Source of the DNA: Chloroflexota bacterium
Lineage (GTDB): Bacteria; Chloroflexota; Limnocylindria; Limnocylindrales; CSP1-4
Assembly (NCBI GenBank): GCA_003250155.1
Contig: QKHE01000006.1
Coordinates: 1-50,807 of the forward strand
DNA: 50,807 nucleotides
Direction of reading: 5' to 3'
Part shown: positions 15,855 to 35,325 of the stretch, piece after piece
Layout: each line of letters opens with the position of its first letter
How positions within the stretch are numbered: position 1 is the first letter of the stretch
Made by a program: the position numbers and the translations under genes
Notes under the pieces: generated by a model
The model's input: the letters and a program-made list of their open reading frames with translations, nothing else
What the model was told of the DNA's origin: nothing
The model's database searches: none

Positions 15855-16211
15855 TTGCCGCCGTCCCCCGCCCACATTCGAACCACCCTCGCGGCGGTCG
15901 TCGACCCGCCCGAGGAGCTCCGTGCCCTGCGCCTCGTCCACAAGGCGCTGGCCGACGTCAACCGGCTGCGGATCGTGCGCCGGTTGGCGAAGAGCGAGGC
16001 CAGCGTCTCGGAGCTGATCGAGCACGTCGGCCTGTCGCAGCCACTCGTGTCGTGGCACCTCGGCCGCCTCCGCAGCGCCGGCCTCATCGAGACACGCCGG
16101 GTGGGCCGGGAGACCGTATCGCGCCTCCTGCCGGAGGCGTTCGAGCGGTTCGCCGACCACGAGCGACGCGTCCTCGGCCTGGCCCGGACAAGGGAGCAGA
16201 CGGCGTCGTGA
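15855..16211 (+). CDS. ArsR/SmtB-family (winged-HTH) transcriptional regulator
   Basis: LADVNRLRIVRRLAKSEASVSELIEHVGLSQPLVSWHLGRLRSAGLIETRRVGRETVSRL is a typical ArsR HTH. The TTG start is taken from the ORF track and is uncertain. Confidence 0.85.
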   Translation: MPPSPAHIRTTLAAVVDPPEELRALRLVHKALADVNRLRIVRRLAKSEASVSELIEHVGLSQPLVSWHLGRLRSAGLIETRRVGRETVSRLLPEAFERFADHERRVLGLARTREQTAS

Positions 16212-16834
16212 GCGGCTCGCTCGTCTCGCCCGCGACCCGGCGCCGCGTTCGCGACCTCGCCACGCCGATCGCCCGCGGGCTCGGCCGGCTGGGCCTGACG
16301 CCGAATGCCCTGACGGTCGTCGGCTTCCTCGGCACATGCGTCGCGGCGTTCGCGGCCGCCGGCCAGGCGTGGGCCGTCGCGGGCGTCCTCGTCCTCGCCT
16401 TCGGCATCTTCGACCTGTTCGACGGCTCGCTGGCGCGGGCGACCGGGCGCGTTTCGCGCTTCGGCGCGTTCCTCGATTCGACGCTCGATCGAGCCGGCGA
16501 GGCCGTCGTCTACATCGGCATCGTTGCCGGCTGCCTTGCCATCGACCACCCGCTCGGCGCCGTCAGCGCCGCCGCGGCCATGGCCTCGGCGTTCATGGTG
16601 AGCTACACGCGGGCCAAGGCCGAGAGTCTCGGCTTCGCGCCCGCGGCAGGCATGGCGAACGTCGGCCTCGCGCCGCGCGAGGTCCGCGTGGTGATCGTCG
16701 CCATCGGGCTGCTGGCGGCGGCCGCCTCGTCCCTCGACGCATTGGCCGGAGCGCTCATCCTGATCACGGTCCTGGCCTCCCTGACCACCGTCCAGCGCAT
16801 CCTGCACGTCCGCGCGCAGGCGAAGGAGGGCTGA
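16208..16834 (+). CDS. pgsA: CDP-alcohol phosphatidyltransferase, probably phosphatidylinositol-phosphate (PIP) synthase.
   Basis: The GTG at 16208 overlaps the arsR stop (GTGA). The full CDP-alcohol motif DLFDGSLARATGRVSRFGAFLDSTLDR (D-x2-DG-x2-AR-x8-G-x3-D-x3-D) is present. The gene lies directly upstream of ino1 and in the same operon as pimA. Confidence 0.85.
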   Translation: MSGSLVSPATRRRVRDLATPIARGLGRLGLTPNALTVVGFLGTCVAAFAAAGQAWAVAGVLVLAFGIFDLFDGSLARATGRVSRFGAFLDSTLDRAGEAVVYIGIVAGCLAIDHPLGAVSAAAAMASAFMVSYTRAKAESLGFAPAAGMANVGLAPREVRVVIVAIGLLAAAASSLDALAGALILITVLASLTTVQRILHVRAQAKEG

Positions 16835-16899
16835 AGCCGGCCGCTCCCTGATCTTCGAACCCACCGGACATCCGACCACATGAGGAACTGGAGAACCAG

Positions 16900-18150
16900 A
16901 TGGCAAAGACCAACGGCAAGAACGGCCACACGCCGACCAACACCTGGGCGGGCTCGGCCCGCCGCAAGGACGGCAAGATCCGTGTCGCGATCGTCGGCGT
17001 CGGCAACTGCGCGAGCAGCCTCGTGCAGGGCCGCTACTACTACGAGAACGCCAACGACGACGACTTCGTCCCGGGGCTGATGCACGTCAACCTCGGCGGC
17101 TACCACATCCGCGACATCGAGTTCGTGGCCGCCTTCGACGTCGACAAGAACAAGGTCGGCAAGGACCTCTCGGAGGCGATCTACCAGAAGCCCAACAACA
17201 CCTACGTCTTCCAGCAGGTCCCGCACACCGGCGTGACCGTCGAGCGCGGCATGACCCACGACGGGCTCGGCAAGTACCTCAGCGAGATCATCGAGAAGGC
17301 GCCCGGCCCGACGGCCGACATCGTCGGCATCCTCCAGGAGCGCGAGGTCGACGTCATGGTCTCCTACCTGCCGGTCGGCAGCGAGGAGGCGACGAAGTGG
17401 TACGTCGAGCAGGCGCTTCGTGCCGGCGTCGGCTTCATCAACGCCATCCCGGTGTTCATCGGCCGTGAGCCGTACTGGCAGCGCCGCTTCGCCGAGGAGG
17501 GTCTGCCGGTCATCGGCGACGACATCAAGAGCCAGGTCGGCGCGACGATCAGCCACCGCGTGCTGACGCGGCTGTTCATGGATCGCGGCGTCCGCCTCGA
17601 CCGGACCTACCAGCTGAACTTCGGCGGCAACACGGACTTCCTGAACATGCTCGAGCGCGAGCGCCTCGAGTCGAAGAAGATCAGCAAGACGAACGCCGTC
17701 ACGAGCATGCTCGACTACGAGCTCGATCACGACGACGTCCACGTCGGCCCGTCCGACCACGTGCCGTGGCTGCTCGACCGCAAGTGGTGCTACATCCGGA
17801 TGGAGGGCACGACCTACGGCGACGTGCCGCTCAACGCCGAGCTGAAGCTCGAGGTCTGGGACAGCCCCAACAGCGCCGGCGTCATCACCGACGCGATCCG
17901 CTGCCTGAAGCTGGGCCTCGATCGCGGCCTGAAGGGCACGCTCGTCGCGCCGTCGAGCTACTTCATGAAGAGCCCGCCGGTCCAGATCCACGACGACATC
18001 GCGTTCAACCGCGTCGAGGCGTTCATCCGCGGCGATGACGACGAGACGCTCGTCGGCACCGAGAAGCCCGTCAAGCGCACGTACCGCAAGCTGGCGGCGC
18101 GGCCGTCGAAGGCGGCGGGGACCGGCGCGAAGGCGGCGACCGGGGCGTGA
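16900..18150 (+). CDS. ino1: myo-inositol-1-phosphate (inositol-3-phosphate) synthase
   Basis: GGAGAA lies 7 nt upstream of the ATG. Motifs seen: [81 protein letters not shown]. It has a Lys/Ala-rich C-terminal tail. Confidence 0.92.
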
Positions 18151-19172
18151 GCTCGGGCGGCCGTCCCCTCAAGGCACCGCATCGGCGGGGGCCCCAGGGT
18201 CCCCGCCCGATCGAGCGCTCGGCGGTCTACGTCTATCGCCTCGGGGCGTGGATCCTGGGCAGCCTGCCCGTGCCGATCGCGCGCTGGATCGTGGCCTTCA
18301 TGCTTCAGCTGTCGTTCTTCATCGTGCCCTCGAAGCGGCGCTCGGTCCACCTGAACTTCGCCCACGTGACCGGCAAGTCGCCGTCGAGCCTCGAGGTCCG
18401 GCGGCGCTCGCTCGGCGCCTACCGTTCGTACGCGCGCTACGTCGTCGAGCTGATGCGCCTGCCGCTCATGACCGACGACGCGGCCGAGGCGCTCGTCGAC
18501 ACCTCCAACCTGCTGCCGCTCGAGGCCCATTGGAAGGAGACCCGGCGGGGCATCATCCTGACGACGCCCCACATCGGCAATCTCGAGGGCGTGGCCCGCG
18601 GCATCGCCCGCCACGGCTGGCCGATCGCCGCGGTCGCCGACGACACGAGCTTCCCGGAGCTGTTCGATCACCTGACCCGGCAGCGCGAAACGTGGGGCGT
18701 GCGGATGATCCCGTGGCGCAACCTGCGCGAGCTGTACCGGATCCTCCGGCGCGGCGAGATCCTGGCCCTCGTCATCGACTGGGGCTACAAGGCCGACGAC
18801 GTGCCGGTTCGCCTGTTCGGGACGTGGACGACGCTGCCGGCCGGCCCGGCCGTGCTGGCCGCGCGGACCGGGGCCGAGATCGTCAATGTCGCGATTCGGC
18901 GAACGGCGGACGGCCGCGCCTACCAGATCGCCTATGGCGAGCCGATGCTCGTGCATTCGACGGAGCCGGCCGAGATCGCGCGGGCGACGCAGGCGATCGC
19001 CGACGCGCTCGAGGCGACGATCGCCGCGGCGCCGGAGCAGTGGTACAGCTTCAAGCCCCAGTGGCCCGAGACCGAGGCCGAACGGGCCGAGCTGGCCGAG
19101 CGAGCGGCGCTCGAGCGCTCGGGCGTCGACGCGGCGCTGGGAGCGCCCGCGGAAGGCCTAGCGACCGGCTGA
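18147..19172 (+). CDS. LpxL/HtrB-family lipid acyltransferase (PatA-like PI-mannoside acyltransferase candidate), copy 1.
   Basis: Its GTG overlaps the ino1 stop (GTGA). It has an N-terminal membrane-associated segment, an H-x4-E motif ([10 protein letters not shown]), and [10 protein letters not shown]...[24 protein letters not shown], which is typical of the family. Confidence 0.8.
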
Positions 19173-20134
19173 TGGGCGAACGCGGGCCACGATCGTCGTG
19201 GGTCCGGCGGCTGCGCGCCCGTGGTGTCGTGGCCGGCGCCTGGCTGCTGTCGCGCCTGCCCGAGCGACCGCTCCTCGCCCTGGCGGGGATCGTCGGTGAC
19301 GCCTGGTGCCGCCTCGCTCCCGAGCGGCGCCGGCTGGCGCGCCGGAACCTCGCCCGGATCGCGGCCTGGATGGACGAGACGGGACGGGGCGACCCCGCGC
19401 GTCGGGCGGCGGCCCATGACGGAGCGGCGCTGACCCGGCTCGTCCGCGAGGCGTTCCGGAACTCGGCCCGCTACTACCTCCGCCTCGCGCGCGCCGGAAC
19501 GCTGTCGCCGGCCGAGGTTGAGCGGCGCTTCGTCGTCGATACCCCCGAGCTGCTCGCCGAGATCCTGGCGGACCCGAAGGGAGCGCTGTTCGTCGGCCTC
19601 CATCTCGGCTGGTACGAGCTCGCGGCGCTGTACTTCATCCGCAAGACCGGCCGGCGCGGCGTCGTCCCGACGGAGATCGTGGCCGACCCGGAGCTCCAGG
19701 CCTTCCTCGTCGCCTCGCGCGAGCGGATGGGGGTCCGCCTCGTCGACGTCGCCTCGGCCCGCCGCGAGCTGGCCGCCGCACTTCGCCGCGGCGAGACGGT
19801 CGGGTTGGTCGCCGATCGCGACGTGAGCGGCAGCGGCATCGTGACAACCCTGTTCGGGCATCCGGCTCGCCTGCCGGCCGGGCCGGCGCTGCTGGCGCTC
19901 GAGACCGGTGCGGTGCCACGCGTCTTCGGCACCTGGGTCGCCGCCGACGGCCTCAACCACGCGCGCGGCCAGACCGTGCCGCTGCCCGAGGGCGAGACGC
20001 GACGCGCGCGCGTCGAGGCGTGGCTGGAGGCGGAAGCGCGAGCGTTCGAGGAATACGTTGCCGAGGCGCCGGAGCAGTGGCAGGCCGTCTTCCACCCGAT
20101 CTGGGACGACCTCGCCGAGGGGCTCGCGGCATGA
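19172..20134 (+). CDS. LpxL/HtrB-family lipid acyltransferase, copy 2 (paralog of 18147-19172).
   Basis: The ATG at 19172 overlaps the upstream stop (ATGA). Motifs seen: H-x4-E (GLHLGWYELAA), VGLVADRDVSGSG...LFGHPARLPAGPALLALETGA. Confidence 0.75.
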   Translation: MGERGPRSSWVRRLRARGVVAGAWLLSRLPERPLLALAGIVGDAWCRLAPERRRLARRNLARIAAWMDETGRGDPARRAAAHDGAALTRLVREAFRNSARYYLRLARAGTLSPAEVERRFVVDTPELLAEILADPKGALFVGLHLGWYELAALYFIRKTGRRGVVPTEIVADPELQAFLVASRERMGVRLVDVASARRELAAALRRGETVGLVADRDVSGSGIVTTLFGHPARLPAGPALLALETGAVPRVFGTWVAADGLNHARGQTVPLPEGETRRARVEAWLEAEARAFEEYVAEAPEQWQAVFHPIWDDLAEGLAA

Positions 20135-20958
20135 CCGCCCGCCTCGGTCGCGCCGACCTGCACATCCACACCCTGGCCTCCGACGGGACGGTCGGGGTGA
20201 TCGACGTGCTGGATCACGTCGAACGCAACACCGACCTCGACGTCATCGCCATCGCCGACCACGAGCGGATCGACGCCGCGCTGGCCGGGCGCCGGATCGC
20301 CGTAGATCGCGGGCTGTCGTTCGAGGTCGTCGTCGCCGAGGAGATCACGACCCTCGGCGGACACCTCCTCGGGCTGTGGCTCGAGGAGCGCGTCAAGCCG
20401 TTCCGCTCGCTCCGCTCGACGATCGCCGAGGTCCATGCCCAGGGCGGCATCGCCGTGCCGGCCCATCCGCTGGTGCCGTACCCGCTGTGCGCCCAGGGCT
20501 TCGTGCTGCGACGCCTGCTCGGCGACGACGAGCGCTACCGGCCCGACGGCCTCGAGGCGTTCAACCCGACGACGCTCGGCCGGCCATGGCACGGCAAGGT
20601 CGTGCGCTTCGCCGAGGAGCACGGCCTCGCTCGGCTCGGCAACTCGGACGCCCACGAGCTCGACGCGATCGGCATCGGCTACACGACCTTCCCCGGCCGA
20701 TCGGCGGATCAGCTGCGATCGGCGATCCTGGCCCGGACGACCCACCACCACGGCTCGTTCCACCCGCCCGGCGCCCAGGTCGGGACGTTCGGCAAGCAGC
20801 TCCGCAAGTACGGCCGCGACGTTCGCGCCGAGGTCGGCGGCCGGCTCCGCCGTGACGGCTCGCGGCGCGACCTGGGCTACCCGTCGGAGCACGGCGTCGG
20901 TGCCGTGGGGCTCGTGGCCAGCCGGCGGCGGGGCGAGGAGGAGGCCGAGTCGGCATGA
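20131..20958 (+). CDS. PHP-domain metal-dependent phosphoesterase (TrpH/YciV-like).
   Basis: The ATG at 20131 overlaps the upstream stop (ATGA). PHP motifs seen: ADLHIHTLASDGT, DVIAIADHE, ITTLGGHLLGLW, GGIAVPAHP, LGNSDAHE. Confidence 0.85.
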   Translation: MTARLGRADLHIHTLASDGTVGVIDVLDHVERNTDLDVIAIADHERIDAALAGRRIAVDRGLSFEVVVAEEITTLGGHLLGLWLEERVKPFRSLRSTIAEVHAQGGIAVPAHPLVPYPLCAQGFVLRRLLGDDERYRPDGLEAFNPTTLGRPWHGKVVRFAEEHGLARLGNSDAHELDAIGIGYTTFPGRSADQLRSAILARTTHHHGSFHPPGAQVGTFGKQLRKYGRDVRAEVGGRLRRDGSRRDLGYPSEHGVGAVGLVASRRRGEEEAESA

Positions 20959-22139
20959 AGATCGGGCTCGTGACGCCGTACGTCTACCCGCTGCCGGGCG
21001 GGGTCAACCAGCACGTCCGGTACCTCTACGAGAACCTCCGGCTACGCGAGCACGACGTCCGGATCATCACCAGCAGCCACGGCCTCCAGCGCGCCTCGGA
21101 GGGCGACGTCATCCGCATCGGCAAGGGCATCTCCGTCCCCTCGAACGGCTCGGTCGGGACGGTCACCGTCTCGCCGCGCTACCTGTCGCAGGTCCGCGAG
21201 GTGCTGGAGCGCGAGCAGTTCGACCTGCTCCACTTCCACGAGCCGTTCGTGCCCTTCCTGTCGCTCGTCACGCTGCGGCTGTCGAAGAGCGTCAACGTCG
21301 CGACGTTCCACGCCTATGGCGGCTTCTCGCCGGCCTACGAGTTCGGCTCGCGGGTCCTCGGCGGCTACGCCCGCCGCCTCCACGGCCGGATCGCGGTCTC
21401 GGCCGCGGCCCGTCACTTCATCGATCGCTACTTCCCCGGCGATTACAAGGTCATCCCGAACGGCGTCGATACCGCCCGCTTCGCACGAGCCGTGCCGATC
21501 GCGCGCTGGCAGGACGGCACCCGGAACATCCTGTTCGTCGGCCGCTTCGAGCCTCGCAAGGGCCTGCTCGACCTGCTCAAGGCCTACCGGATCCTGCGCC
21601 GAACCGGCTGCAACTGCCGGCTCCTCGTGATCGGTGGCGGGCCCCAGGCGAAGGAGGCACGCCGCTACCTCCAGACGCGCCGGCTGGGCGGCGTGGAGTT
21701 CCTCGGCCGGGTGACCGACGAGGAGCGCGATGCGCTGTTCAAGACGGCCGACGTGTACTGCTCGCCCGCGACCGGGCGGGAATCGTTCGGGATCGTGCTG
21801 CTCGAGGCGATGGCCGCCGGCACGTCGATCGTGTGCAGCGACATCCACGGCTACAAGGGCGTCGTCCGCCGCGACCGCGAGGGCCTGCTCGTGCCGCCGC
21901 ACCAGCCGAAGGCGCTCGCCGCGGCCCTGGCCCGGCTGCTGTCCGACGACGCCCTGCGCGAGCGGATGAGCAGCTCCGGGCTCGAGCGAGCCGAGGAGTT
22001 CAGCTGGGAGCGGGTGACCGCCAAGGTCGAGGAGTACTACGGCTTCGTGATCCGGCGGCTCGCCGCCCAGGGCCAGCTGCCGCCGGGCTTCAGCGCCGAG
22101 GTCCCGGCCGACCCACGGCAGGTCATCCCGGCCGCCTGA
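20955..22139 (+). CDS. pimA: GT4 glycosyltransferase, PimA-like phosphatidylinositol alpha-mannosyltransferase.
   Basis: Its ATG overlaps the PHP gene stop (ATGA). The N-terminus MKIGLVTPYVYPLPGGVNQHVRYLYENLRLREHDVRIITS is PimA-like. The GT4 E-x7-E region is ESFGIVLLEAMAAG. Operon context with the PIP synthase and acyltransferases supports the call. Confidence 0.8.
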   Translation: MKIGLVTPYVYPLPGGVNQHVRYLYENLRLREHDVRIITSSHGLQRASEGDVIRIGKGISVPSNGSVGTVTVSPRYLSQVREVLEREQFDLLHFHEPFVPFLSLVTLRLSKSVNVATFHAYGGFSPAYEFGSRVLGGYARRLHGRIAVSAAARHFIDRYFPGDYKVIPNGVDTARFARAVPIARWQDGTRNILFVGRFEPRKGLLDLLKAYRILRRTGCNCRLLVIGGGPQAKEARRYLQTRRLGGVEFLGRVTDEERDALFKTADVYCSPATGRESFGIVLLEAMAAGTSIVCSDIHGYKGVVRRDREGLLVPPHQPKALAAALARLLSDDALRERMSSSGLERAEEFSWERVTAKVEEYYGFVIRRLAAQGQLPPGFSAEVPADPRQVIPAA

Positions 22140-22154
22140 TCCGGCGCTCCGGCG

Positions 22155-25100
22155 CTACTCCGGGCCGGCCGGCAGGCCCGGCGGACCGGCCGCCCGTTCG
22201 AGCCGGCGCTCGGCGAGCGCGACGCGCCACGACCAGGTCGAGTAGCCGACGACGAGGGCCGTGAAGCCGATCGAGAGCAGCATGATCGCCGGCCCGATGT
22301 CGAACAGCGGTGGTCCGTCGACCGAGCGATCGACCGTGCTGACCGGGAACTGGAACGGGTACAGGTAGGTCGGCAGGAAGCCCTGGTAGGCGTTGTGCAG
22401 GTTCGTCGGCAGCGGCAGCCCGCTGATGTTCGGGTACCAGAGCACGAACCAGAAGCCGATCGCGACCATCGCGCCGACGACGAAGCGGCGCGAATCGCGC
22501 GCTGTGGCGACGTACGCCGCGAGCGGTGTCAGGGCGAGCAGGACGACCATCGCGATCGGCTCGACCGGGACGTTCGGGATGTTCATGAGCTCGCCGCCGT
22601 CGACGAAATTGGTCACGAACGCGATCGCCGCAACGACGCCGCCCCCGATGAGGATCGTCGTCCGCAGGCGCGCCCGGACGCCCGCCGAGGCCAGTGCACC
22701 GTCCTCCAGCGCCGCCGCGTCGGCCTCGTCGGCCAGCGCCAGCATCTCGCGCACGAGCAGCAGCAGCCCGATGCCGAGCACGATCGCGAGGGCCAGCGCG
22801 CCGGGGGCGACCGGGATCTCGGGGATCACCGTCGGACACGCCTGCGAGCTGGGGTTCACGTCGGTGACCCGGACGGCAGCGCACAGCGGTCGATGCAGCA
22901 GCCACAGCAGGAACGGGCCCACCACGGCGACGGCGGCCGCCACCCGCGCAAGGATCCACGTCCGACGTGATGGGCCGTGCCACAGCTCGGCCAGGAAGTA
23001 GGCCAGCGCCAGGAACAGGAACGGCAGCGCCGTGTAGTAGTGGTACTGGAACGCGGCACGGTCGATCCGGGCCCACGCGATCCACTGGAAGGCGAAGGCG
23101 ATCGCCACGAGGGCCAGGGCCGCGCTGCGGCGCTTGAAGGCCTGCCACGCGGCGAAGGCCATCGCCGGCACGGCCAGCCACCACGCGACGAGATTGCCGG
23201 CGTCGTAGATCGCGCCCGCGGTGCCGCCGGCGAAGCCCTCCTCGTAGAACCACACCGGCTTCAGGTCGAACGGCCAGGCCCACCACGGCGACGACGCCGG
23301 ATGGGCCGAGCTCAGGCGGTTGTGGTAGTTGTACATGTCCCGCGTCAGGTCGATGAGCGTCTGGCCGGTATGGCCGGCCGGCCAGCCCTGGACGAGCTGG
23401 TGGTTCTCGACGAACGCCCACGGGATGTACGACGCCACGTAGACCGCCAGTGGGATCGCCACGAGGCAGACGGCGAGCCAGACGGCCGGCAGCCCGAGGC
23501 CGCTGCCGAGGCGCAGCCAGCCGTGGGGCGCCGGGGCAGGCGGATCGAGGATCGCTCCCGGGTCGTCGGCTTGCGGCGGCGGCGCCATCGGCCCGAAGCC
23601 GAGCCGCCCGGTGACGACGAACGCGGTATGGACGGCGGCGCCCAGGACGAAGCCGAGGATCGCCAGCTCGATCGGGGTCACCGAGACCGGGCCGAGGGTC
23701 AGCGGGGCGAGCGGGTCGCCGCGGGCCGCCCCGGCGAGCAGTGCCAGGCCGCCGGCGACCGGCGCCGCGAATGTCGCGAAGCGCTGTTCCTCGACGGTCC
23801 AGGCGATCGGGTGGCTGACGTTCGCCACGACGCCGGCGAGTGTCAGCGCGACCATGATCGCCAGGAACAGGTAGTTGCCACCGCTCTCGCCGGCCGGGAC
23901 CGAGATCGCGAGGTATCCGAGGACGGTCGTCGCGACGATCATGCCGAGGATCGCCAGCAGCCGTCCGAGCGCGCTCCGCGACAACGCCAGGATGCCGAGG
24001 CCGCCGATCGCGTACGCGGCGACCCACTTCGACGCCAGGGCCAGCCCGAGCAGCAGGCCGACCGCCAGCATCCCGACCGCGAAGGCCAGCCAGCCCCGCC
24101 CTCCACGCCCCGGCCTGAGCCACAACGCCGCGAAGATCGTGTAGGCGGCGACGATGCCGAGTCCCACGTAGGCGTCGTTCATCCCGATCCTGCTCTGGGC
24201 GAACAGCATCCCGTCGAGCAGGGCCAGGATGCCGACGAGGATCGCGACGCTACGGCGATGGAACAGCAGTCGCGCCAGGACGTACAGGAACAGGGCCATC
24301 AGGATGCCCGCGATGACGCCCGGCAGGCGCCAGGCGAACGCGTGGCGTCCGATCGGGACCGCGGCGACCCCGCCGCCCGCATCGAACGCCAGCAGCTGCT
24401 GTCGATCGCTCGACGGGTAACGCTCGTTGTCGTCCATCACGATGGCTGCCGGCTCGAACGGCAGCGCCGCATCGGCGTAGACCGCGTTGCCGTGGGGCTC
24501 GACGACGTAGACCGTCGGCGTCGTCGGGTCGTCCGGGCGCGAGCCCTCGACGTGGACCATCCGGCTGGCCTCGTCGAAGTAGGCGCGTCCGGCCCGGTCG
24601 CCGGGAAGTGGCAGCGTGGTGTCGATCCGGGGATCCTCGTCCGGCTTCGCGACGACGACCGCGAGCCGCGGACCGTCGGCCGTCATGTACGGCACGTAGA
24701 TCGGGTCGTCGCTGAGCCCGCTCGTGCTCACCGCGCCGGTCGCCGGGCCGCCCACGCCGACGACGTCGGCGATGGTCCCGGTCTCGGGGTCGATGAACGC
24801 CAGGCCCTCGGCCGTGGCCACGGCGATCCGGCCTTGGCCGCCGTCCGTCAGCTGGCCGACACCGGACAGCTGGGCCCGGCCGACCACCTCGGCCGCGCCG
24901 AGATCGACGGTCACGATCTCCTGGAGATCGGCGCTGCCGCCGTCCGTGGCAAGCACCGCTGCCAGCCGGCTGCCGTCGTCGGTGACGAACAGCCGCTCGA
25001 CGGTGCCGTCGAGATCGAGCAGCGGGTGCAGACCGAGCGGCGCGAGGCCCTGGCCGCGAACGTCGTCGACCGGGCCGAGCTCCGCCTCCAGGACCTGACC

Positions 25101-27482
25101 ACTGCGGGTCGCCGCGTAGAGCCGTGCAGCCGGCCGGTCGATCGCGACGGCCACGACGCCCGGCCAATCGGCACTGGCCGCGAGCTCGCGGGACTGGAGG
25201 TCGTAGCCGAGGACCTCGCTGCCGGTCGCGATCCACAGCCGGTCGCCCTCCCGCGGCGAGCCGGCCAGGGTGTCGTCGCGCCGCGGTTCGATCGCGGCGT
25301 CGACGACGGCCTTGCCGAGCTGGCTCGTCGCGACGACGCGGTCGTCGGCGAAGGCCACGATGCCGAGCGCCATCGCGTACTTCGCCAGGTGTGGATGGGT
25401 CCACTCGTAGATGTTGTGCGAGATGCCGTACCGCCAGTCCTGGAGGAACTCGGTCGCGGTCCGCGGGTGGTAGACCTCGTCGAAGTGCATCTGGTACGGC
25501 TCGGGCAGCCGCCACAGGCGGACGCTGAGCAGGGCGATCGCCAGGACGACCAAGATCCAGGCATCGAGCTTGTCGAGACGGCCGCCGCGCTCGGCGGCCA
25601 GGGCCGCGCTCCGATCGGCGCGGACCGGGCGATCGCGGAAGCGGGCCACGAACCAGGCCCACGGGCCTTCGCCCCCGGGGCCGGCGTCGGGGTCGTCCCA
25701 GGCGGGCACCAGGCCGGCCCCCGGCGCCGGGCCCTCGCGCACGACCGCGGCGGAGGCTGTTATTGGCGAGGCGGCCAGCGGTGAGGCGGTCAGCGGTGAG
25801 GCGCTCAGCGGCGAGGCGCTCATCGGCGAGCCGGCCAGCGGCGCACGCCATTCGATCGCGGGCGGCCCCGACGGCTCGGCTGCCAAGTCGTCGAATCGTT
25901 CAGGCTCCGGAACGTCGGCGCTCGTCGCGACCTCGTCGGCCAACTGCTCGTCGGCGCCGCCGCGGAGCTGCACGAACGCCCAGGCGAAGACGGCCGTCGC
26001 GGCGGCGGCGACGGCAGCGACGCCCCAGTACGAGGTGAGCGTCGAGCCGATGCCCAGCCAATCGTCGATCCCGGGGTTGTCGGGGTAGAGCGTCGTCAGG
26101 ACCGCGTACATGTTCGCGAACACCGCGCCGCTGCCGACGAGGTACGCGATCCGCCAGCGCAACGATGCGCCGGCGACGATGGCCGCGATGGCGACGAACG
26201 GGAACAGGTAGCGCTCGTGCACCCGGGTCGGCAGCACGAAGAATGCGAGGCTGAGCACGATCAGCCCGACGAGGATCGTCCGGCGGTCCGGCCGCCGCCA
26301 GACGAGGGCCGCGACGATCGCGATCGCCGCGAGGAGCAGCAGCGCGCCGACGGCCAGCGCCGGCAGGGCGCCGATCATGACCCCCGGGTCGCCGACGCAG
26401 CGGCCGTCCGGCGGGATGCCCGGCACGTGCCACAGGTCGATGTCGCCGATCCGGATGACGAACGGCTCGGACGGCACCGCCGTCGAGTCGCAGACCCACT
26501 GGCGGTTGACCGCGATGCCGTTGACGCTCCCGTCGAGCTGCGTCTGGCCGACGAGTGCCCACGGGTTGTAGGCGTTGACCGACACGTACGGGTAGCCCGA
26601 GGCCGTGGAGAAGATCTGGTTGACGAGCCCCTCGATCCCGAGCCCGAACGGGAGCGACAGGATGATCGCGGTCAGCAGCCCCGCGGCGCCGGTGGTCAGG
26701 ATCCGGATCGGACCTCGGAGGCGCGCCTCGAGGCGAGTTCGACCGTACGTGGCCGGATCGGGGTCGTCCTCGCCGTATGCCCCCCGGGGCCGGAGCGCCC
26801 GCCGGATCGCGACGATGGCGACGATCGGGATGAGGATGCCGAGCTGGGGCTTGATGAGCGCGGCGAGCATCGCCAGGATCGCCGCCCGCTCGAGGCGGTC
26901 GCGCCACAGCTCCCGCACGGCCAGCAGCAACGGGATCAGCCCCACCGAATCGACCTGGCCCCAGATCGTGCTGTCGAACCAGGTCACCGGGTTGAGGACG
27001 ACGAGCAGGGCGCCGATCCGGGCCGCGCGCTCGCCAGCGCCCAGCTCGCGCGCCATGGACCAGACGAGGTACCCGAGGACGAGGTCGGCCAGGATCGGCG
27101 GGACCTTGATGAGGTCGCCGGGGCCGGCCAACCCGAAGAGGTTCGCGACCGTCCCGACTGCCCACAGGACGTACAGGTAGCCGGGCGTGTAGTCGTGGAA
27201 GAACGGCCGCTCGTAGAAGCCGTACAGTCCCTCGTCCGCCAGGTTCTTGGCCCAGAACTGGAACGAGCTGATGTCGACCCCGAACCCGGAGCCCGGCAGG
27301 AGATATGCAATGATGAGCCGGAGGGCGAGCCCGACGGCCAGGAGGATCAGGATGCCCCGCAAGGCGTCCGCCGCCTCGGTCCGCGACGGAGCCCCCGTGC
27401 CCGGGTCGGGCTCACCGACTGCGGGACCTGTCAAGACGCGAACGATCTCCTGCGAGCGGTGAGGTGGCTGGGAGCGTAGCAC
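22155..27482 (-). CDS. A 1775-aa polytopic membrane protein with two GT-C glycosyltransferase modules. The N-terminal module is ALG6/DUF2029-like. The C-terminal module is PMT/GT39-like and is interrupted by a soluble repeat domain of about 330 aa.
   Basis: The frame is uninterrupted and protein-like throughout. N-module motifs: FFHDYTPGYLYVLW, WGQVDSVGL. The linker has SPxxA repeats. PMT motifs: HFDEVYHPRTATEFL...THPHLAKYAMALG, then FAWRLPGVIAGILMALFLYVLARLLF, DGMLFAQSRIGMNDAY. The C-terminal region SSPWWAWPFDLKPVWFY is PMT_4TMC-like. The GTG start at 27482 is uncertain because it overlaps the divergent gene start. Confidence 0.8.
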   Translation of the reverse strand: MLRSQPPHRSQEIVRVLTGPAVGEPDPGTGAPSRTEAADALRGILILLAVGLALRLIIAYLLPGSGFGVDISSFQFWAKNLADEGLYGFYERPFFHDYTPGYLYVLWAVGTVANLFGLAGPGDLIKVPPILADLVLGYLVWSMARELGAGERAARIGALLVVLNPVTWFDSTIWGQVDSVGLIPLLLAVRELWRDRLERAAILAMLAALIKPQLGILIPIVAIVAIRRALRPRGAYGEDDPDPATYGRTRLEARLRGPIRILTTGAAGLLTAIILSLPFGLGIEGLVNQIFSTASGYPYVSVNAYNPWALVGQTQLDGSVNGIAVNRQWVCDSTAVPSEPFVIRIGDIDLWHVPGIPPDGRCVGDPGVMIGALPALAVGALLLLAAIAIVAALVWRRPDRRTILVGLIVLSLAFFVLPTRVHERYLFPFVAIAAIVAGASLRWRIAYLVGSGAVFANMYAVLTTLYPDNPGIDDWLGIGSTLTSYWGVAAVAAAATAVFAWAFVQLRGGADEQLADEVATSADVPEPERFDDLAAEPSGPPAIEWRAPLAGSPMSASPLSASPLTASPLAASPITASAAVVREGPAPGAGLVPAWDDPDAGPGGEGPWAWFVARFRDRPVRADRSAALAAERGGRLDKLDAWILVVLAIALLSVRLWRLPEPYQMHFDEVYHPRTATEFLQDWRYGISHNIYEWTHPHLAKYAMALGIVAFADDRVVATSQLGKAVVDAAIEPRRDDTLAGSPREGDRLWIATGSEVLGYDLQSRELAASADWPGVVAVAIDRPAARLYAATRSGQVLEAELGPVDDVRGQGLAPLGLHPLLDLDGTVERLFVTDDGSRLAAVLATDGGSADLQEIVTVDLGAAEVVGRAQLSGVGQLTDGGQGRIAVATAEGLAFIDPETGTIADVVGVGGPATGAVSTSGLSDDPIYVPYMTADGPRLAVVVAKPDEDPRIDTTLPLPGDRAGRAYFDEASRMVHVEGSRPDDPTTPTVYVVEPHGNAVYADAALPFEPAAIVMDDNERYPSSDRQQLLAFDAGGGVAAVPIGRHAFAWRLPGVIAGILMALFLYVLARLLFHRRSVAILVGILALLDGMLFAQSRIGMNDAYVGLGIVAAYTIFAALWLRPGRGGRGWLAFAVGMLAVGLLLGLALASKWVAAYAIGGLGILALSRSALGRLLAILGMIVATTVLGYLAISVPAGESGGNYLFLAIMVALTLAGVVANVSHPIAWTVEEQRFATFAAPVAGGLALLAGAARGDPLAPLTLGPVSVTPIELAILGFVLGAAVHTAFVVTGRLGFGPMAPPPQADDPGAILDPPAPAPHGWLRLGSGLGLPAVWLAVCLVAIPLAVYVASYIPWAFVENHQLVQGWPAGHTGQTLIDLTRDMYNYHNRLSSAHPASSPWWAWPFDLKPVWFYEEGFAGGTAGAIYDAGNLVAWWLAVPAMAFAAWQAFKRRSAALALVAIAFAFQWIAWARIDRAAFQYHYYTALPFLFLALAYFLAELWHGPSRRTWILARVAAAVAVVGPFLLWLLHRPLCAAVRVTDVNPSSQACPTVIPEIPVAPGALALAIVLGIGLLLLVREMLALADEADAAALEDGALASAGVRARLRTTILIGGGVVAAIAFVTNFVDGGELMNIPNVPVEPIAMVVLLALTPLAAYVATARDSRRFVVGAMVAIGFWFVLWYPNISGLPLPTNLHNAYQGFLPTYLYPFQFPVSTVDRSVDGPPLFDIGPAIMLLSIGFTALVVGYSTWSWRVALAERRLERAAGPPGLPAGPE
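25761..25835. repeat. Five tandem copies of a 15-bp unit, which encode an SPxxA pentapeptide repeat linker within the 1775-aa GT-C ORF.
   Basis: The units are attggcgaggcggcc, agcggtgaggcggtc, agcggtgaggcgctc, agcggcgaggcgctc and atcggcgagccggcc. The minus-strand translation is SPMSA-SPLSA-SPLTA-SPLAA-SPITA. Confidence 0.85.
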
Positions 27483-28930
27483 AGGGCGCCGTGGGCCCCC
27501 GGGCCTCGGCGCTCGTCGCCGAGTGGCTCGAGCGCGTGCCCGCGGTCGTCATCGGAGCGGCCCTCATCGCGGTCGCCCTGGCGGCCTTCTGGCTGCCCGG
27601 CTACGACCGCTACTACAACCACTTCGTGTGGCAGGCGGAAGCGTTCCTCCACGGCACGGCCGTCATCGACTGGCCGGTCGACCTGGGCGGCTTTCCGCGT
27701 GGCAACGACTGGATGCAGGACGTCTATCCGCTTCGGGAGCTGACCGGCGACCCCGGCGCGATCGGCGCTCTGCTGCCCTTCCCGCCACTGCCGGCGATCG
27801 TGCTCCTGCCGTTCGTGGCCGCGTGGGGCCTGGCGACCGACATCCGGGCCGTGTCGGTGCTCTGCGGCGCGCTGGGTGTCGGCCTCGCCTGGTGGGCCCT
27901 CGGGCGCCTCGCCCTGTCGCGGCCGATTCGCGTCGCCACGACCATCTTCCTGGCCTTCGGCACCGTGTACTGGTACGCCGCGCAGCTCGGCACGACGTGG
28001 TTCTTCGCTCACGTCGTGGCCATCGACCTGACGCTCCTGGCCGTCGGCCTCGCGCTCGGGGCGGACGCGCGGTCCGACGACCCGGTCGACGAGGCGCCGG
28101 GGGTCGCCCGGCTCGCGGCCGATCTCCGAGCGGCGCTGCGCCGGCCGTCCGAGCTCCTCGACCGCCGGCAGTTCGCCGCCGGGCTCCTGTTCGGCCTTGC
28201 CTGCACGGCGCGCCTGACCGTCGTTTTCGCGGCGCCGTTCTTCATGCTGATCGGCGGCGGCGGCACGTGGGTCCGGCGGTCCTTCTCGGCCGGTCTGGGG
28301 GCGATCATCCCCGTCGGGCTCCTGCTCGGCTACAACCTGCTCACGACCGGATCGCTCATGCATCCCGGCTACGAATACCAGTACCAGCGCGAGGCGAGCG
28401 GCTACACGGCGCTCGGCTATCACCCGGACTGGAGCATCGAGGATCCCCGCTACCTGCCGCAGAACCTCGGGATCATGCTCGCCGCGACCCCGGCGATCCT
28501 GCCGGACTACCTGCCCGGGGCCTTCGGCGACACCGACGACGTCGCCTGCGCGGACCCCGGGGCGACTCGCGGCTTCTTCGATCGAGACTGCCCGATCGCG
28601 ATCCCGCGGGCGATCGGGATGAGCATCCTCCTGACGAGCCCGGCCTATCTGCTCGTGCTTCCGGCGCTGCTCCGGCGCCGCTCCCGCCTCGTCGCCGGCG
28701 CCTGGCTCACCGTGCTCGCCGTGGCGTTCGTCAACCTGATGCATTTCAGCCAGGGCTGGGTCCAGTTCGGCTACCGGTTCGGCAACGACTTCGTCGTCTT
28801 CGGCGCGATCCTCGTCGCGCTCGGCATGGCGCGCCGCGGCGGGGTCGGGCTGGTCGGGCTGGCGCTGGTCGGCGCCTCGGTCGCGGTGAACCTGTGGGGC
28901 GTGATCTGGGGCAACATCCTCGGATGGTGA
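27464..28930 (+). CDS. Polytopic GT-C-fold membrane glycosyltransferase (ArnT/PMT_2-like).
   Basis: About 11-13 TM segments. The architecture is ArnT/PMT_2-like, with a short N-terminal loop (PGYDRYYNHFVWQAEAFLHG) after TM1. It lies in the same operon as the DUF2723 and GT2 genes. The start is uncertain: the GTG at 27464 overlaps the divergent gene, and downstream GTGs at 27491 and 27534 are possible. Confidence 0.6.
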   Translation: MAGSVAQGAVGPRASALVAEWLERVPAVVIGAALIAVALAAFWLPGYDRYYNHFVWQAEAFLHGTAVIDWPVDLGGFPRGNDWMQDVYPLRELTGDPGAIGALLPFPPLPAIVLLPFVAAWGLATDIRAVSVLCGALGVGLAWWALGRLALSRPIRVATTIFLAFGTVYWYAAQLGTTWFFAHVVAIDLTLLAVGLALGADARSDDPVDEAPGVARLAADLRAALRRPSELLDRRQFAAGLLFGLACTARLTVVFAAPFFMLIGGGGTWVRRSFSAGLGAIIPVGLLLGYNLLTTGSLMHPGYEYQYQREASGYTALGYHPDWSIEDPRYLPQNLGIMLAATPAILPDYLPGAFGDTDDVACADPGATRGFFDRDCPIAIPRAIGMSILLTSPAYLLVLPALLRRRSRLVAGAWLTVLAVAFVNLMHFSQGWVQFGYRFGNDFVVFGAILVALGMARRGGVGLVGLALVGASVAVNLWGVIWGNILGW

Positions 28931-30570
28931 CCAGCGCCCAGCCCGCCCCGGCGCGCTCGATCCCGGAGCCATCGCCCACGCCGGAGCGGCGACTCATGGA
29001 CGCCGCCGTTCGCGCCCTGCCCGCGGCGGCGCTGGTCCTGATCGTCGTCGCCAACGCATGGCCGGGCTTGATGCCCGACGTCGGCTTCTGGGATACCGGC
29101 GAGTTCCAGGCCGTGCTGCCCACGCTCGGCACCGCCCATTCGCCCGGCTATCCGACGTACGTGATCCTCGGTTTCCTCGGTTCGATCCTCCTCACGCCGC
29201 TCGGCGAGCCGGCGTTCCGGGTCACGGTGCTGTCGCTGCTGTTCGTCGCCGTAGCGGCGGTTGCCACGATGGCCCTCGTCCGGCGGCTCACGGGCTGGCT
29301 GCCCGTCGGCTTCGCCGCGGGCCTGGGCCTGGCCGTCACGCCGATCGTGTGGCTGAACGCGACGCGCGCCGATCCGCACCCGCTGCACCTGGCCTTCGTC
29401 GTGCTGCTGCTGCTGGTCCTGGTCGGCTGGCAGCAGGATCGGGACGAGCTGGAGTCGGCCGCCGCGGACCGGCGGCTGCTGCTCGCGGCGGCGCTCTTCG
29501 GGCTGGCGGCCGGCAATCACTCGCTGACGCTCCTGCTCGCGCCGGCGATCGCGCTGTTCGTCGCGGTCGTCGAGCCCGGCATCCTCCGCCGGCCGCTGTT
29601 CGTCGCCGGCTGCCTGGCCGTGGCGCTCGGCACGCTCGCGCTCGTCTACCTTGAGCTGCCGATCCGCGCCGGTCTCTGGCGCGCCCCGCTCGTCTACGGC
29701 CGGCCGGACACCTGGGAAGGCTTCTGGTACATCGCCCTCGCGCAGCAGTTCCAGGGCTCCCTCGGCGACCCGCTGGCGGACCTGCCGGCGAAGCTCGAGG
29801 CGATCGTCGAGATCGCCGGCCAGCAGCTCGGCTGGCTGACGCTGCTGCTGCCGCCCGCGGCGCTGGTCGTCGCCCGGCGCGCGCCGGCCTACGCGCTCCT
29901 GACCGGCGTCGCGATGGTCACGACGCTGCTGTTCAACACCTCGTACTCCAACGCCGACATCGAGCGCTACTACCTCGGTCCGGCACTCATGGCCTGGACG
30001 TGGCTCGGGATCCTCGCCGGCGAGGTCGCCAACCTCGCCGCGACGGCCGTCGTCGACGATGACGGCCGGCTGCGGACGTGGCTGGCCCGGCTGGCGCCGG
30101 CGGCGGCGCCGGATCCGATGCGCTGGGAGCGCGCCGGCGTGGCGGCCGCGGTCGTCGCGGGCGCGATCCTGCTCGCACCCGGCCTGGCCGACCTCGGGCC
30201 GCGGGCCGCGGCGGCCGATCGATCGGCCGACACCGCCGCACGGCGCTGGCTCGACGAGGTCCTGCCGATCCTGCCGCAGGACGCCGTGCTCGTCAGCTGG
30301 TGGAGCACCTCGACGCCGCTGTGGTACGCCCAGCGCGTGGAGGCCCAGCGGACCGACCTCTTCGTGGTCGATGATCGCACCATGCTGGACCAGGACCTCG
30401 GACGTGCGCCCGACGTGATCGAGCGCTTCCTCGGGCAGCGGCCGGTCTTCGTCATCCGCCTCGATCGCGACCTGCCGGAGCTCCAGGCACGCTTCCTCAT
30501 GGTGCCCGTCGCGAGCGGCGGCAGCACCGGCGTGTGGCGGGTCGACGGGCGCCTGGAGGGCGGCGGGTGA
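28924..30570 (+). CDS. DUF2723 (TMEM260-like) GT-C family glycosyltransferase.
   Basis: Motif FWDTGEFQAVLPTLGTAHSPGYPTYVILG, which resembles the DUF2723 consensus D.GE....a..lGi.HPPGYP. It is polytopic at the N-terminus with a soluble C-terminal domain. The ATG at 28924 overlaps the upstream gene end. Confidence 0.75.
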   Translation: MVTSAQPAPARSIPEPSPTPERRLMDAAVRALPAAALVLIVVANAWPGLMPDVGFWDTGEFQAVLPTLGTAHSPGYPTYVILGFLGSILLTPLGEPAFRVTVLSLLFVAVAAVATMALVRRLTGWLPVGFAAGLGLAVTPIVWLNATRADPHPLHLAFVVLLLLVLVGWQQDRDELESAAADRRLLLAAALFGLAAGNHSLTLLLAPAIALFVAVVEPGILRRPLFVAGCLAVALGTLALVYLELPIRAGLWRAPLVYGRPDTWEGFWYIALAQQFQGSLGDPLADLPAKLEAIVEIAGQQLGWLTLLLPPAALVVARRAPAYALLTGVAMVTTLLFNTSYSNADIERYYLGPALMAWTWLGILAGEVANLAATAVVDDDGRLRTWLARLAPAAAPDPMRWERAGVAAAVVAGAILLAPGLADLGPRAAAADRSADTAARRWLDEVLPILPQDAVLVSWWSTSTPLWYAQRVEAQRTDLFVVDDRTMLDQDLGRAPDVIERFLGQRPVFVIRLDRDLPELQARFLMVPVASGGSTGVWRVDGRLEGGG

Positions 30571-31361
30571 TGACTGACGCGCGGGACGGCACGGCGGAGG
30601 CTCGGCGCCTGCCGGAGCTGACCTATTTCTTCCCGGCCCACAACGAGGCGGCCAACGTCCGCGGCCTCGTGGAGGAGGCCCTGGCCGAGCTGCCCGCGCT
30701 CGCCGAGCGCTTCGAGATCATCGTCGTCGACGACGGCTCGCGCGACGAGACCCCGGGGATCGCCGACGAGCTCGCGGCGGCGCATCCAGAGGTCCGGGCC
30801 GTGCACCACCCGACGAACCTCGGCTACGGCGCCGCCCTCCGGTCGGGCTTCGCGGCCGGCCGGCTCGCGTATCTCGCGTTCACCGACGGAGATCGCCAGT
30901 TCCAGGTGGCCGACATTCGACGGCTCATCGACGGCCTGCTCCTGCCGGGCGACGCGGCGCACCCGCCCGACGTCGTCGCCGGCTATCGCATCAAGCGCGC
31001 CGATCCGCTCGTTCGAACGATCTACGCCCGGATGTACCGGCTCGCCAACCGGATCTTCTTCGGCCTCCGGGTGCGCGACATCGACTGTGCCTGCAAGCTG
31101 TTCCGCCGGGAGGCGCTGGAAGGCATCCACGTCGAGTCCGGGGGCGCGTTCTTCTCGGCCGAGCTGCTGATCAAGCTGGAGGCCGCCGGCCGCCGGATCA
31201 GCGAGGTCGGCGTGCCGCACTACCCGCGGACGGCGGGCCGGCCAACCGGCGCCAAGCCGCAGGTGATCCTTCGCGCGGTACGCGACTTCTGGGCGCTCCG
31301 GCTGCGCCTCTGGGCGTCGCCCCGGCGGGCGCTCCGACGCGGCTCGTCGATCCTCGGCTGA
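30570..31361 (+). CDS. GT2 polyprenyl-phosphate sugar synthase (Ppm1/DPM1/GtrB-like, for example polyprenol-phosphate mannose synthase).
   Basis: The ATG at 30570 overlaps the upstream stop (TGATG). Motifs seen: FFPAHNEAANV, FEIIVVDDGSRDET, NLGYGAALRSGF, FTDGDRQF, IDCACKLFRREAL. Confidence 0.85.
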   Translation: MTDARDGTAEARRLPELTYFFPAHNEAANVRGLVEEALAELPALAERFEIIVVDDGSRDETPGIADELAAAHPEVRAVHHPTNLGYGAALRSGFAAGRLAYLAFTDGDRQFQVADIRRLIDGLLLPGDAAHPPDVVAGYRIKRADPLVRTIYARMYRLANRIFFGLRVRDIDCACKLFRREALEGIHVESGGAFFSAELLIKLEAAGRRISEVGVPHYPRTAGRPTGAKPQVILRAVRDFWALRLRLWASPRRALRRGSSILG

Positions 31362-34959: not shown

Positions 34960-35325
34960 TTATCGCATGGGTCTCTGATCGGACTGCGGATGGCGCCGCA
35001 CCGTGACGCGGAGCCCCGAGATCCTGCGACCTGCGGGTGCCGCACCGAACGCGGCGGCCAGCGCGGAGGCGTTGAGCCGGAGCTCCTGCGCCACGATCGG
35101 AGCGTCCGCCTCGACGACCAGCAGGTCGCCCTCGCCGCCAGCCTCGATCCCGATCGCCCGGCAGGCGCCGTGCGCCGCCGGCGCGAGCTCGGCGACGATC
35201 GCATCGAATGTCGCCGCGGCGCGCGCTCGGCGGAGCTCGTCCTCGAGGCCGAGCCGGGCCGCGGCGCCGGGAATGAGCTCGCCGATGCGGGACATCGGGC
35301 GCCGGCGGCGCGGTTCGTCGCTCAC
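34960..35325 (-). CDS. DUF721 / DciA-like protein, the conserved small gene that follows recF.
   Basis: Its position immediately downstream of recF is typical. The sequence (LEDELRRARAAATFDAIV...LLVVEADAPIVAQELRLNASALAAAF) looks DUF721-like. A GTG at 35325 overlaps the recF stop (GTGA). An ATG at 35295 is the alternative start. Confidence 0.65.
   Translation of the reverse strand: MSDEPRRRRPMSRIGELIPGAAARLGLEDELRRARAAATFDAIVAELAPAAHGACRAIGIEAGGEGDLLVVEADAPIVAQELRLNASALAAAFGAAPAGRRISGLRVTVRRHPQSDQRPMR

Follow-up and report, generated by a model that had tools for sequence, protein, structure and literature searches.

Contig QKHE01000006.1 of a Chloroflexota bacterium (GTDB order Limnocylindrales), analyzed here over a stretch of 50,807 nucleotides (the window), carries on its minus strand at 22155..27434 a gene for a dual GT-C glycosyltransferase of 1759 amino acids (aa). 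In this single polypeptide, an N-terminal module related in fold to ALG6, PimE, and GPI mannosyltransferase I (GPI-MT-I) is fused to a C-terminal module resembling the protein O-mannosyltransferases (PMTs) of family GT39. We consider it very probable that the product is a bifunctional enzyme with two GT-C sites, both lying outside the membrane. A more specific reading, in which the two sites perform consecutive transfers on an acylated phosphatidylinositol (PI) mannoside, is proposed tentatively and stands somewhat short of an even chance.

The underlying open reading frame (ORF) spans 22155..27482 (1775 codons) and is translated without a stop. It begins at a GTG at 27482, 16 codons upstream of a TTG (27432-27434) that is probably the true start, as judged from the database gene call of 1759 aa and from the N termini of homologs, all of which share MTGPAVGEPDP; the gene ends with a TAG at 22155-22157. 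Thus, the length of 1775 aa given in a first-pass annotation of this DNA holds for the ORF, but the gene itself is probably shorter. Because the window is 69-75% GC and contains spurious long ORFs in several frames, the coding signal was checked by codon position. In every 100-codon block of the ORF, the GC content of third positions (GC3) was 0.87-0.99 and that of second positions (GC2) 0.44-0.64; a GC2 near 0.5 with high GC3 is the coding signature of this 72% GC genome. A phase plot likewise showed a single unbroken minus-strand coding signal from ~22150 to 27400. The 5.3-kb frame therefore encodes real protein throughout, as first proposed, and the motifs quoted at that time (HDYTPGYLYVLW, WGQVDSVGL, HFDEVYH, HPHLAKY, FAWRLP, and MNDAY) are all found in it. 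In databases, the fusion protein is labeled either "phospholipid carrier-dependent glycosyltransferase" or "hypothetical."

The fusion recurs widely among relatives. Among 5.8 billion proteins searched, at least 120 were full-length relatives of 1638-1819 aa with 55-79% identity to the window protein; their sources label them as Chloroflexota metagenome-assembled genomes (MAGs), mostly Candidatus Limnocylindria/Limnocylindrales. At least 582 species-representative genomes (GTDB) carry a relative of the C-terminal half; among the best 80 loci, which were analyzed, the N-terminal module (N-module) lies directly upstream of the C-half in all 77 that have DNA there, and in ~67 of these 77 the two form one uninterrupted frame. 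A scan of JGI metagenome contigs seeded with distant relatives gave 79 loci; the fusion is present in 74 and extends to lineages whose identity to the window protein is as low as 32-37%. Where identity in the N-module falls to 39-46%, cluster representatives still show the motifs in the order DYxPG ... HERY ... FDEV and retain their Pfam PMT and PMT_4TMC matches. The single ORF is thus carried by more than 140 independent genomes and metagenome contigs, and the fused state is both ancestral and dominant in this clade. The fusion had been called unusual, which is correct among described enzymes but not within the lineage, where it is the rule.

That two adjacent genes were merged here by a lost stop or a frameshift during sequencing or assembly is exceedingly improbable. 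Such an artifact might be read from eleven related loci, nine in genomes and two in metagenomes and several from long-read assemblies, whose halves lie in different frames. Base-by-base examination of the nine genome loci showed open frames that overlap within the variable linker, by 67-860 nt, and found no stop, spacer, and new start in any of them; five are long-read MAGs and one contains Ns. Two of the related loci, L003 and L004, at first seemed to present a two-gene version (a 493-aa N gene followed by a 1134-aa PMT gene in the same syntenic block). We rejected them as clean evidence, since here, too, the open frames overlap within the linker, L004 has many broken genes, and the nearest relative of the pair, P0292, consists of one ORF whose alignment involves a frame switch. 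Against an artifact also stand the unbroken coding signal and the recurrence of the single ORF in independent short-read and long-read assemblies from many projects. Separate-gene versions had been sought as a check, and no clean one was found among the genome and metagenome loci examined; neither a lost stop nor a frameshift accounts for the fusion.

Several features of the related assemblies were recorded in passing. Likely indel errors affect long-read MAGs of the lineage (L002 10001-15415, L003, and L004), and both the acyltransferase and the PMT genes of L004 are fragmented. P0117 has an ~100-aa Arg/Pro-rich tail that overlaps the pimA gene. Some distant members are longer (P0209, 2390 aa; P0178, 2092 aa; P0257, 2012 aa), with ~900 extra residues between the N-module and the PMT module in P0209. 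Four loci of the Limnocylindria type with 50-82% identity (L007, L018, L064, and L067) are labeled Deferrimicrobiaceae, Eisenbacteria, Methylomirabilota, or Patescibacteria, probably through binning or labeling errors.

The N-module comprises gene residues 1-505 (25920..27434, minus strand), with ~12 transmembrane (TM) helices and both termini inside. In the window protein, it falls below the cutoffs of all family hidden Markov models (HMMs), scoring 18.3 bits for GT87 (PF09594) and 16.4 bits for Alg6_Alg8 (PF03155), each with a cutoff of 25, and 10.2 bits for DUF2079. The Alg6_Alg8 match is limited to residues 379-448, which cover the HERY region, and reaches 24.6 bits in the best relative. 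The family as a whole is large (4109 cluster representatives at E<0.001), and many of its members are standalone proteins of 450-560 aa that JGI names "Gpi18-like mannosyltransferase" or "dolichyl-phosphate-mannose-protein mannosyltransferase." Two standalone relatives exceed the GT87 cutoff (30.4 and 25.3 bits), several standalone members pass the Pfam thresholds for GT87 or PIG-U, and a few fused homologs have a precomputed PF09594 match. An AlphaFold model of the N-module built with 57 standalone homologs (pLDDT 83.3, pTM 0.86) had among its best PDB matches yeast ALG6 (query/target TM-scores of 0.63/0.68), GPI-MT-I (0.54/0.67), ALG3 (0.49/0.64), and PimE (0.44/0.59), along with PIG-U and STT3. 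All matches of the model at E<0.1 were GT-C proteins, namely ALG6, GPI-MT-I, PIG-U, STT3, PimE, ALG3, EmbC, ArnT, and PglB. Thus, for the window protein alone, HMMs do not establish the GT-C identity of the N-module, an outcome that the first-pass annotation had named as a ground for refutation, but this identity is supported by the standalone members above threshold, by the predicted structure, and by invariant Asp, Lys, and His residues.

These residues belong to a set of invariant motifs consisting of D54, D81-Y-x-P-G-Y, W158-G-Q-x-D162, K195-P-Q, and P402-TRVHERY (H406). In alignments of 119 fused and 57 standalone homologs, D54, D81, K195, and H406 are invariant at positions predicted to be on the outer side, and D54, DYxPGY, WGQxD, KPQ, and PTRVHERY are also invariant in distant fused lineages. 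For PimE, an Asp of the first juxtamembrane helix serves as the catalytic base, and the donor phosphate is bound through a Lys and a His (PMC12041525). The Asp, Lys, and His of the N-module appear to match this set in residue type and at topologically corresponding outer positions, which is a correspondence short of a residue-by-residue superposition. The idea that the protein joins GT-C structural subclasses A and B was dropped, because the PimE paper places ALG6, PimE, ArnT, and PglB all in GT-C_A (PMC12041525).

The N-module might alternatively be a non-catalytic domain of GT-C fold that, like PIG-U of the GPI transamidase, binds a lipid-linked substrate or presents it to the PMT module. 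The subthreshold HMM scores of the window protein would fit this possibility, as would the homologs matching the non-enzymatic PIG-U and the similarity of the model to PIG-U structures (TM-score up to 0.59). We nevertheless regard it as very improbable, as D54, D81, the Lys of KPQ, and the His of HERY are invariant from fused to standalone members and the best structural matches, ALG6 and GPI-MT-I, are active enzymes.

Standalone paralogs of the N-module occur in other bacteria (L006 10001-16831, L005, and the contig of P0293), with three paralogs at one locus. They cluster with PMT_2-type GT-Cs, GT2 or GtrA genes, an Acyl_transf_3 gene, or GH127 arabinofuranosidases, contexts that suggest a broad, unstudied family of extracytoplasmic glycan-building enzymes.

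The C-terminal module (C-module) opens with a conserved, Arg-rich segment predicted to be cytoplasmic, the first TM helix of the PMT fold (TM1), and the start of outer loop 1 (25332..25664, minus strand, as are all segments of the gene given below). The loop carries HFDEVYH, which in a PDB sequence search aligned to FDEVHF, the DE motif of yeast and Chaetomium Pmt4, and HPHLAKY. The Asp and Glu of the DE motif (D652-E653) are invariant in all alignments, and the motifs FDEVYH, SRIGMND, and PWWAW are conserved to ~100%. Pfam PMT (PF02366) matched ORF residues 1046-1168 with 37.8 bits against a cutoff of 22.7 (profile positions 80-198), and PMT_4TMC (PF16192) matched ORF residues 1375-1538 with 49.6 bits against a cutoff of 32.4. 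In the gene, the PMT core with TM2-TM7, the invariant SRIGMND loop, and K1136-W lies at 23904..24353, and the conserved outer loop HPASSPWWAWP with the PMT_4TMC region at 22869..23432, just after which comes an invariant Cys pair (C1518/C1533). The loop preceding the last four helices aligned to Pmt4 residues 546-608 (E 1.4e-5). The actinobacterial Pmt equivalog model NF058602 gave only a partial match of 40 bits against a cutoff of 800, which marks the C-module as a divergent GT39 member and not an orthologue of that enzyme.

Residues ~640-1775 had been described as PMT/GT39-like, an assignment borne out by Pfam PMT, PMT_4TMC, and the DE motif, but the region is not uniform throughout, and three insertions or extensions had escaped the description. 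The first, in outer loop 1, is a seven-bladed beta-propeller of ~330 aa (24354..25331; gene residues ~702-1027, ORF residues ~718-1043). In an AlphaFold model of the C-module built with 43 homologs (pLDDT 81.7, pTM 0.82), TM1 is followed by two short outer helices bearing the DE motif, a beta domain of ~28 strands, and ~19 more membrane helices, and Foldseek matched the beta domain to seven-bladed propellers of the WD40/YncE type with target TM-scores of up to 0.75. Propeller matches dominated the Foldseek search with the whole C-module, which thus gives no structural ranking of the membrane part against PMTs. In deep lineages, too, ~440 residues separate the DE motif from the RIxMND loop, which makes the propeller as old as the fusion. 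The second consists of four extra TM helices (23433..23903) that in the model stand where eukaryotic PMTs carry the lumenal MIR domain, for which no HMM match was found in the window protein. To our knowledge, bacterial PMTs also lack a MIR domain. The third is a C-terminal extension of ~235 aa with ~5 TM helices and a conserved outer loop, WYPN...AYQGFLPTYLYPFQF, that belongs to no known family (22158..22868).

Between the two modules lies a low-complexity, variable linker (residues 506-590; 25665..25919) that is predicted to be cytoplasmic. The Ser/Pro repeat noted there before is indeed present and stems from a 15-nt tandem repeat at 25765..25843 (5.3 copies, 85% matches) encoding ASPL(S/T) pentapeptides. 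Both the length and the sequence of the linker differ in every homolog, and all frame discrepancies in related assemblies fall within it. We compared the regions by the fraction of positions identical to the window protein in 119 full-length homologs. This fraction was highest in TM1 and the DE loop (0.79) and in the outer loop with the 4TMC region (0.76), followed by the PMT core (0.65), the N-module (0.63), the C-terminal extension (0.56), and the propeller, which at 0.49 is the least conserved folded region; in the linker, it dropped to 0.19. By this measure, both catalytic modules are strongly constrained and the linker is free to vary.

The topology was derived from the helices of the AlphaFold models, hydropathy, and clusters of Lys and Arg, as a simple hydropathy scan was too crude for a helix count. 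The N-module is predicted to have 12 TM helices and the C-module 20, each with both ends inside, giving a total of ~32. TM1 of the PMT module comes after an Arg-rich stretch, RFRDRPVRADRS...RGGRLDK, and crosses the membrane from the inside outward; the Lys/Arg clusters sit on alternate loops. In this arrangement, the outer side would carry DYxPGY, KPQ, and HERY as well as the DE motif, the propeller, and the PWWAW loop. Outer loops are also the predicted location of two invariant Cys pairs, C315/C346 in the N-module and C1518/C1533 in the C-module, which is consistent with disulfides. From the helix count and the motif positions, we infer that both active sites face the same extracytoplasmic side, in agreement with what the first-pass annotation had expected of the two catalytic loops.

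The genes next to the fusion bear on its acceptor and donor. Convergent on it lies a PimA orthologue (GT4; 20955..22139, plus strand) that aligned to Mycobacterium smegmatis PimA (2GEJ/4N9W) over residues 1-364, the full length, with an E value of 4e-64. It is the last gene of a seemingly complete PI-glycolipid operon on the plus strand (16127-22139), which has overlapping stops and starts and also encodes a CDP-alcohol phosphatidyltransferase with a CDP-OH_P_transf domain (~16127-16834), the inositol-3-phosphate synthase Ino1 (16900-18150; 531 bits against a model cutoff of 638), two PatA-like acyltransferases (18147-19172 and 19172-20134), and a PHP-family metal phosphoesterase (PHP_C, CehA/McbA-like; ~20131-20958). 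The best NCBIfam model for the acyltransferases is the phosphatidylinositol mannoside (PIM) acyltransferase, with 141 and 120 bits against a cutoff of 209. Upstream of the fusion gene and divergent from it, the plus strand encodes, in order, a conserved polytopic membrane protein of 488 aa (27464..28930), a TMEM260-like GT-C (28933..30570, start approximate; E 6.8e-14 to human TMEM260, 9RQL), and a GT2 (30534..31361). The GT2 matches polyprenyl/dolichyl-phosphate sugar synthases best and, on this evidence, is the presumed donor synthase for the fusion enzyme.

This gene block is conserved in L001, in L002, and across the 80 genome loci. PimA adjoins the fusion in 73 of the 80, practically every locus whose downstream sequence is long enough (at least 1300 nt in 72), and the GT2 lies upstream in 62, with upstream sequence of sufficient length in 65. 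The presence of the 488-aa gene and of the TMEM260-like gene varies among these loci, with the former usually found between the latter and the fusion gene. The deep lineages keep the GT2 next to the fusion but not the PimA cluster, so that the pair of GT2 and fusion is the most persistent link, and the link to PimA is very common without being universal.

The first suggestion of consecutive transfers on one acceptor, either a protein O-glycan or a lipoglycan, is a reasonable hypothesis, and the genomic context leans toward a PI-anchored glycolipid. The tentative model that we favor is as follows. A single polypeptide of ~32 TM helices would hold two active GT-C modules, joined by a disordered cytoplasmic linker, with both catalytic loops outside. 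The neighboring GT2 would make a polyprenyl-phosphate hexose, most likely mannose, that feeds both modules, and these would perform consecutive extracytoplasmic transfers onto one envelope glycoconjugate. The acceptor would be an acylated PIM, begun on the cytoplasmic face of the membrane by the CDP-alcohol phosphatidyltransferase, Ino1, and the PimA-like and PatA-like enzymes. The N-module would catalyze a lipid-proximal step of the PimE/PIG-M type, after which the PMT-like module may extend the glycan or pass it on, with the propeller clamping the acceptor. Topology, donor sugar, acceptor, and the order of the steps are all inferred in this scheme. A broader form of the hypothesis is possible but unlikely: Limnocylindria would make a PI-anchored mannoglycolipid or a lipomannan-like lipoglycan by means of a two-site GT-C "assembly line," in which a PMT module recruited from protein glycosylation uses the propeller as an acceptor clamp.

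A number of observations weigh against the PIM-based model. As far as we know, every characterized GT39 enzyme glycosylates Ser/Thr of proteins and not lipids. Mannose as the donor sugar is suggested indirectly, through the affinities to PMT, PimE, and PIG-M and through the PimA neighbor. The N-module found no sequence match in the PDB with either a single-sequence or a 58-sequence profile search, even at E<=10, and the topology was counted by hand from the AlphaFold helices and not by a dedicated predictor. No PimB-like second cytoplasmic mannosyltransferase was recognized among the window ORFs scanned against family models (up to ~43 kb), and no flippase gene was recognized in the window. 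The PimA cluster is convergent on the fusion gene and does not share a transcript with it. Located ~10 kb from dnaA, the whole region also belongs to a block of frozen gene order throughout the class, along with dnaN, recF, and a rhomboid gene. Because the dnaA-proximal genes are equally syntenic, synteny alone is weak evidence of function. Moreover, the deep lineages L138-L153 keep the fusion and the GT2 without an adjoining PimA cluster, with PspC/LiaF genes in its usual place in L141, and in L089-L092 the context is different and contains GH12 and a GT87 gene.

Some of these points would be accounted for by protein O-mannosylation, with the PMT module adding the first Ser/Thr mannose to exported proteins, the N-module adding the next, and the propeller recognizing the protein as the MIR domain of PMTs or the TPR repeats of TMTC and TMEM260 do. 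The link to the PimA cluster would then be indirect and reflect either a shared mannose economy or frozen synteny around oriC. PMT, PMT_4TMC, and the DE motif together define a family whose known members all act on proteins, WD40-like propellers typically bind proteins, and the TMEM260-like gene, a second member of a protein O-mannosyltransferase family, lies two genes off; the deep lineages with the fusion and the GT2 but no PimA cluster fit as well. On the other side, the 40 bits obtained against the 800-bit cutoff for actinobacterial Pmt indicate that the module is not an orthologue of the proven bacterial enzyme. Apart from ALG6, the closest relatives of the N-module by structure and HMM (GPI-MT-I, PIG-U, PimE/GT87, and the COG "Gpi18-like") all handle PI glycolipids, and the fusion gene has PimA, the PatA-like genes, and Ino1 as neighbors at almost every one of the 80 genome loci. 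We therefore judge protein O-mannosylation to be a substantial rival that is, on balance, unlikely.

It is also conceivable, and distinctly improbable, that the modules serve different pathways and are joined only by their common donor, the N-module elongating PI glycolipids and the PMT module mannosylating proteins. Fusion would then provide equal dosage and co-localization where polyprenyl-phosphate-mannose arrives. Each module does resemble families with a different class of acceptor, the long linker with its 19% identity suggests no fixed geometry between the sites, and other genomes contain standalone paralogs of the N-module that have no PMT partner. Yet the fusion is kept down to 33% identity and in more than 140 loci with no clean two-gene version, which points to more than donor supply, and by Rosetta-stone reasoning, fusions would usually join consecutive or interacting steps.

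Consecutive transfers onto an acylated PIM, the model preferred here, can be set beside several known systems. With the GT39 PMTs (yeast Pmt1/Pmt2, 6P25; Pmt4, 9E61; actinobacterial Pmt), the fusion protein shares Pfam PMT and PMT_4TMC, an outer loop with the DE motif directly after TM1, and the HPxxSxWWxWP loop before the last four helices, and a polyprenyl/dolichyl-phosphate-mannose donor is thereby implied. It differs from them in the loop-1 propeller, the five-helix C-terminal extension, and the second GT-C, and from the eukaryotic PMTs in having four extra TM helices instead of MIR. The GT-C fold of the N-module is shared with mycobacterial PimE (GT87; polyprenyl-P-mannose:Ac1PIM4 alpha-1,2-mannosyltransferase; 9DM7, PMC12041525), whose D58, K195, and H322 appear to have counterparts in an invariant Asp of the first outer loop and in a Lys and a His at outer ends of helices. 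The likeness extends to the GT87 match, which is subthreshold here and above threshold in some relatives, and to the PimA/PatA-type genes adjoining the fusion gene. In contrast, the structural match to PimE is limited to 0.44/0.59, the N-module of the window protein stays below the GT87 threshold, and it is longer, with ~12 TM helices and a large, putatively Cys-bonded outer loop, in Chloroflexota and not Actinomycetota.

The best structural matches of the N-module are ALG6 (GT57, 6SNH) and GPI-MT-I/PIG-M (9WNO); the module has a weak Alg6_Alg8 match, and PIG-M mannosylates a PI glycolipid, as is proposed here. Identity to these eukaryotic endoplasmic reticulum enzymes is only 12-15%, however, and the HMM scores are below threshold. 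The large mycobacterial enzymes EmbA/B/C and AftD, like the fusion protein, join a GT-C core to a beta-rich extracytoplasmic domain, which in them presumably holds the growing glycan, and they act on envelope lipoglycans with polyprenyl-phosphate sugars. They have one GT-C core and C-terminal carbohydrate-binding modules, whereas the fusion has two cores and a propeller in loop 1. The pairing of GT2 and GT-C genes is reminiscent of extracytoplasmic "three-component" glycosylation systems (GT2 synthase, flippase, and GT-C; PMC11127046), from which the present locus differs in that no flippase gene was recognized in the window and its GT-C partner is a double enzyme.

Each part taken alone is familiar, whether the GT39/PMT family, the GT-C fold, or the PIM-type operon. 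Our search of the full-text literature found no description of a stable fusion of two different GT-C cores, of a propeller in loop 1 of a PMT, or of an association with PimA, PatA, and Ino1 in Chloroflexota, nor of PIM-type genes, PIMs, or GT-C enzymes in that phylum. GT-C enzymes normally have a single core and meet their partners only in the membrane. The fusion may thus serve as a natural Rosetta stone, in which an ALG6/PimE-like family with no characterized member would work together with a PMT-type enzyme, and it offers a first functional lead for the large uncharacterized family of the N-module. The loop-1 propeller would be a new solution for acceptor recognition in the PMT family, in addition to MIR, TPR, and carbohydrate-binding modules. 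The operon with PimA, PatA, Ino1, and PI synthase points to inositol-mannose glycolipids in an abundant uncultured lineage of soil and fresh water; if this is true, envelopes of the PIM/lipomannan type, so far treated as a hallmark of Actinomycetota, would occur more widely than is known.

Several further features of the locus deserve mention. Three GT-C cores lie within 9 kb, namely the two fusion modules and the TMEM260-like protein. We considered the 488-aa protein as another GT-C and rejected it, as it has no match in Pfam, NCBIfam, or the PDB and hhalign gave a probability of 2% against the N-module family; its 2522 database relatives are all labeled "hypothetical." Nearly all related loci retain the PHP phosphoesterase gene in its place between the acyltransferase genes and pimA. 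As far as we know, no phosphatase has been firmly assigned to the conversion of phosphatidylinositol phosphate to PI in bacteria, and the PHP enzyme is a positional candidate for this step.

The genes are tightly packed, with 29 bp (27435-27463) from the start of the fusion gene to that of the divergent 488-aa gene, a spacing also seen in L001 and L002, and 15 bp (22140-22154) from the stop of the fusion gene to the convergent stop of pimA. Spacers this short imply that promoters and terminators lie inside adjoining coding sequence or that transcripts are leaderless. Farther along, a 745-aa protein (32683-34920, minus strand) encoded between recF/dciA and the rhomboid gene is conserved throughout the class, in 59 of the 80 loci, and has no family match except a faint PP2C-phosphatase signal (E 4e-4). 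Positions 35322-42945, with recF, dnaN, and dnaA on the minus strand followed by yidC and jag on the plus strand, form a replication-origin neighborhood; relatives also carry a DciA gene after recF. At the opposite end of the window, nuo (complex I) genes are located at 1-12 kb.

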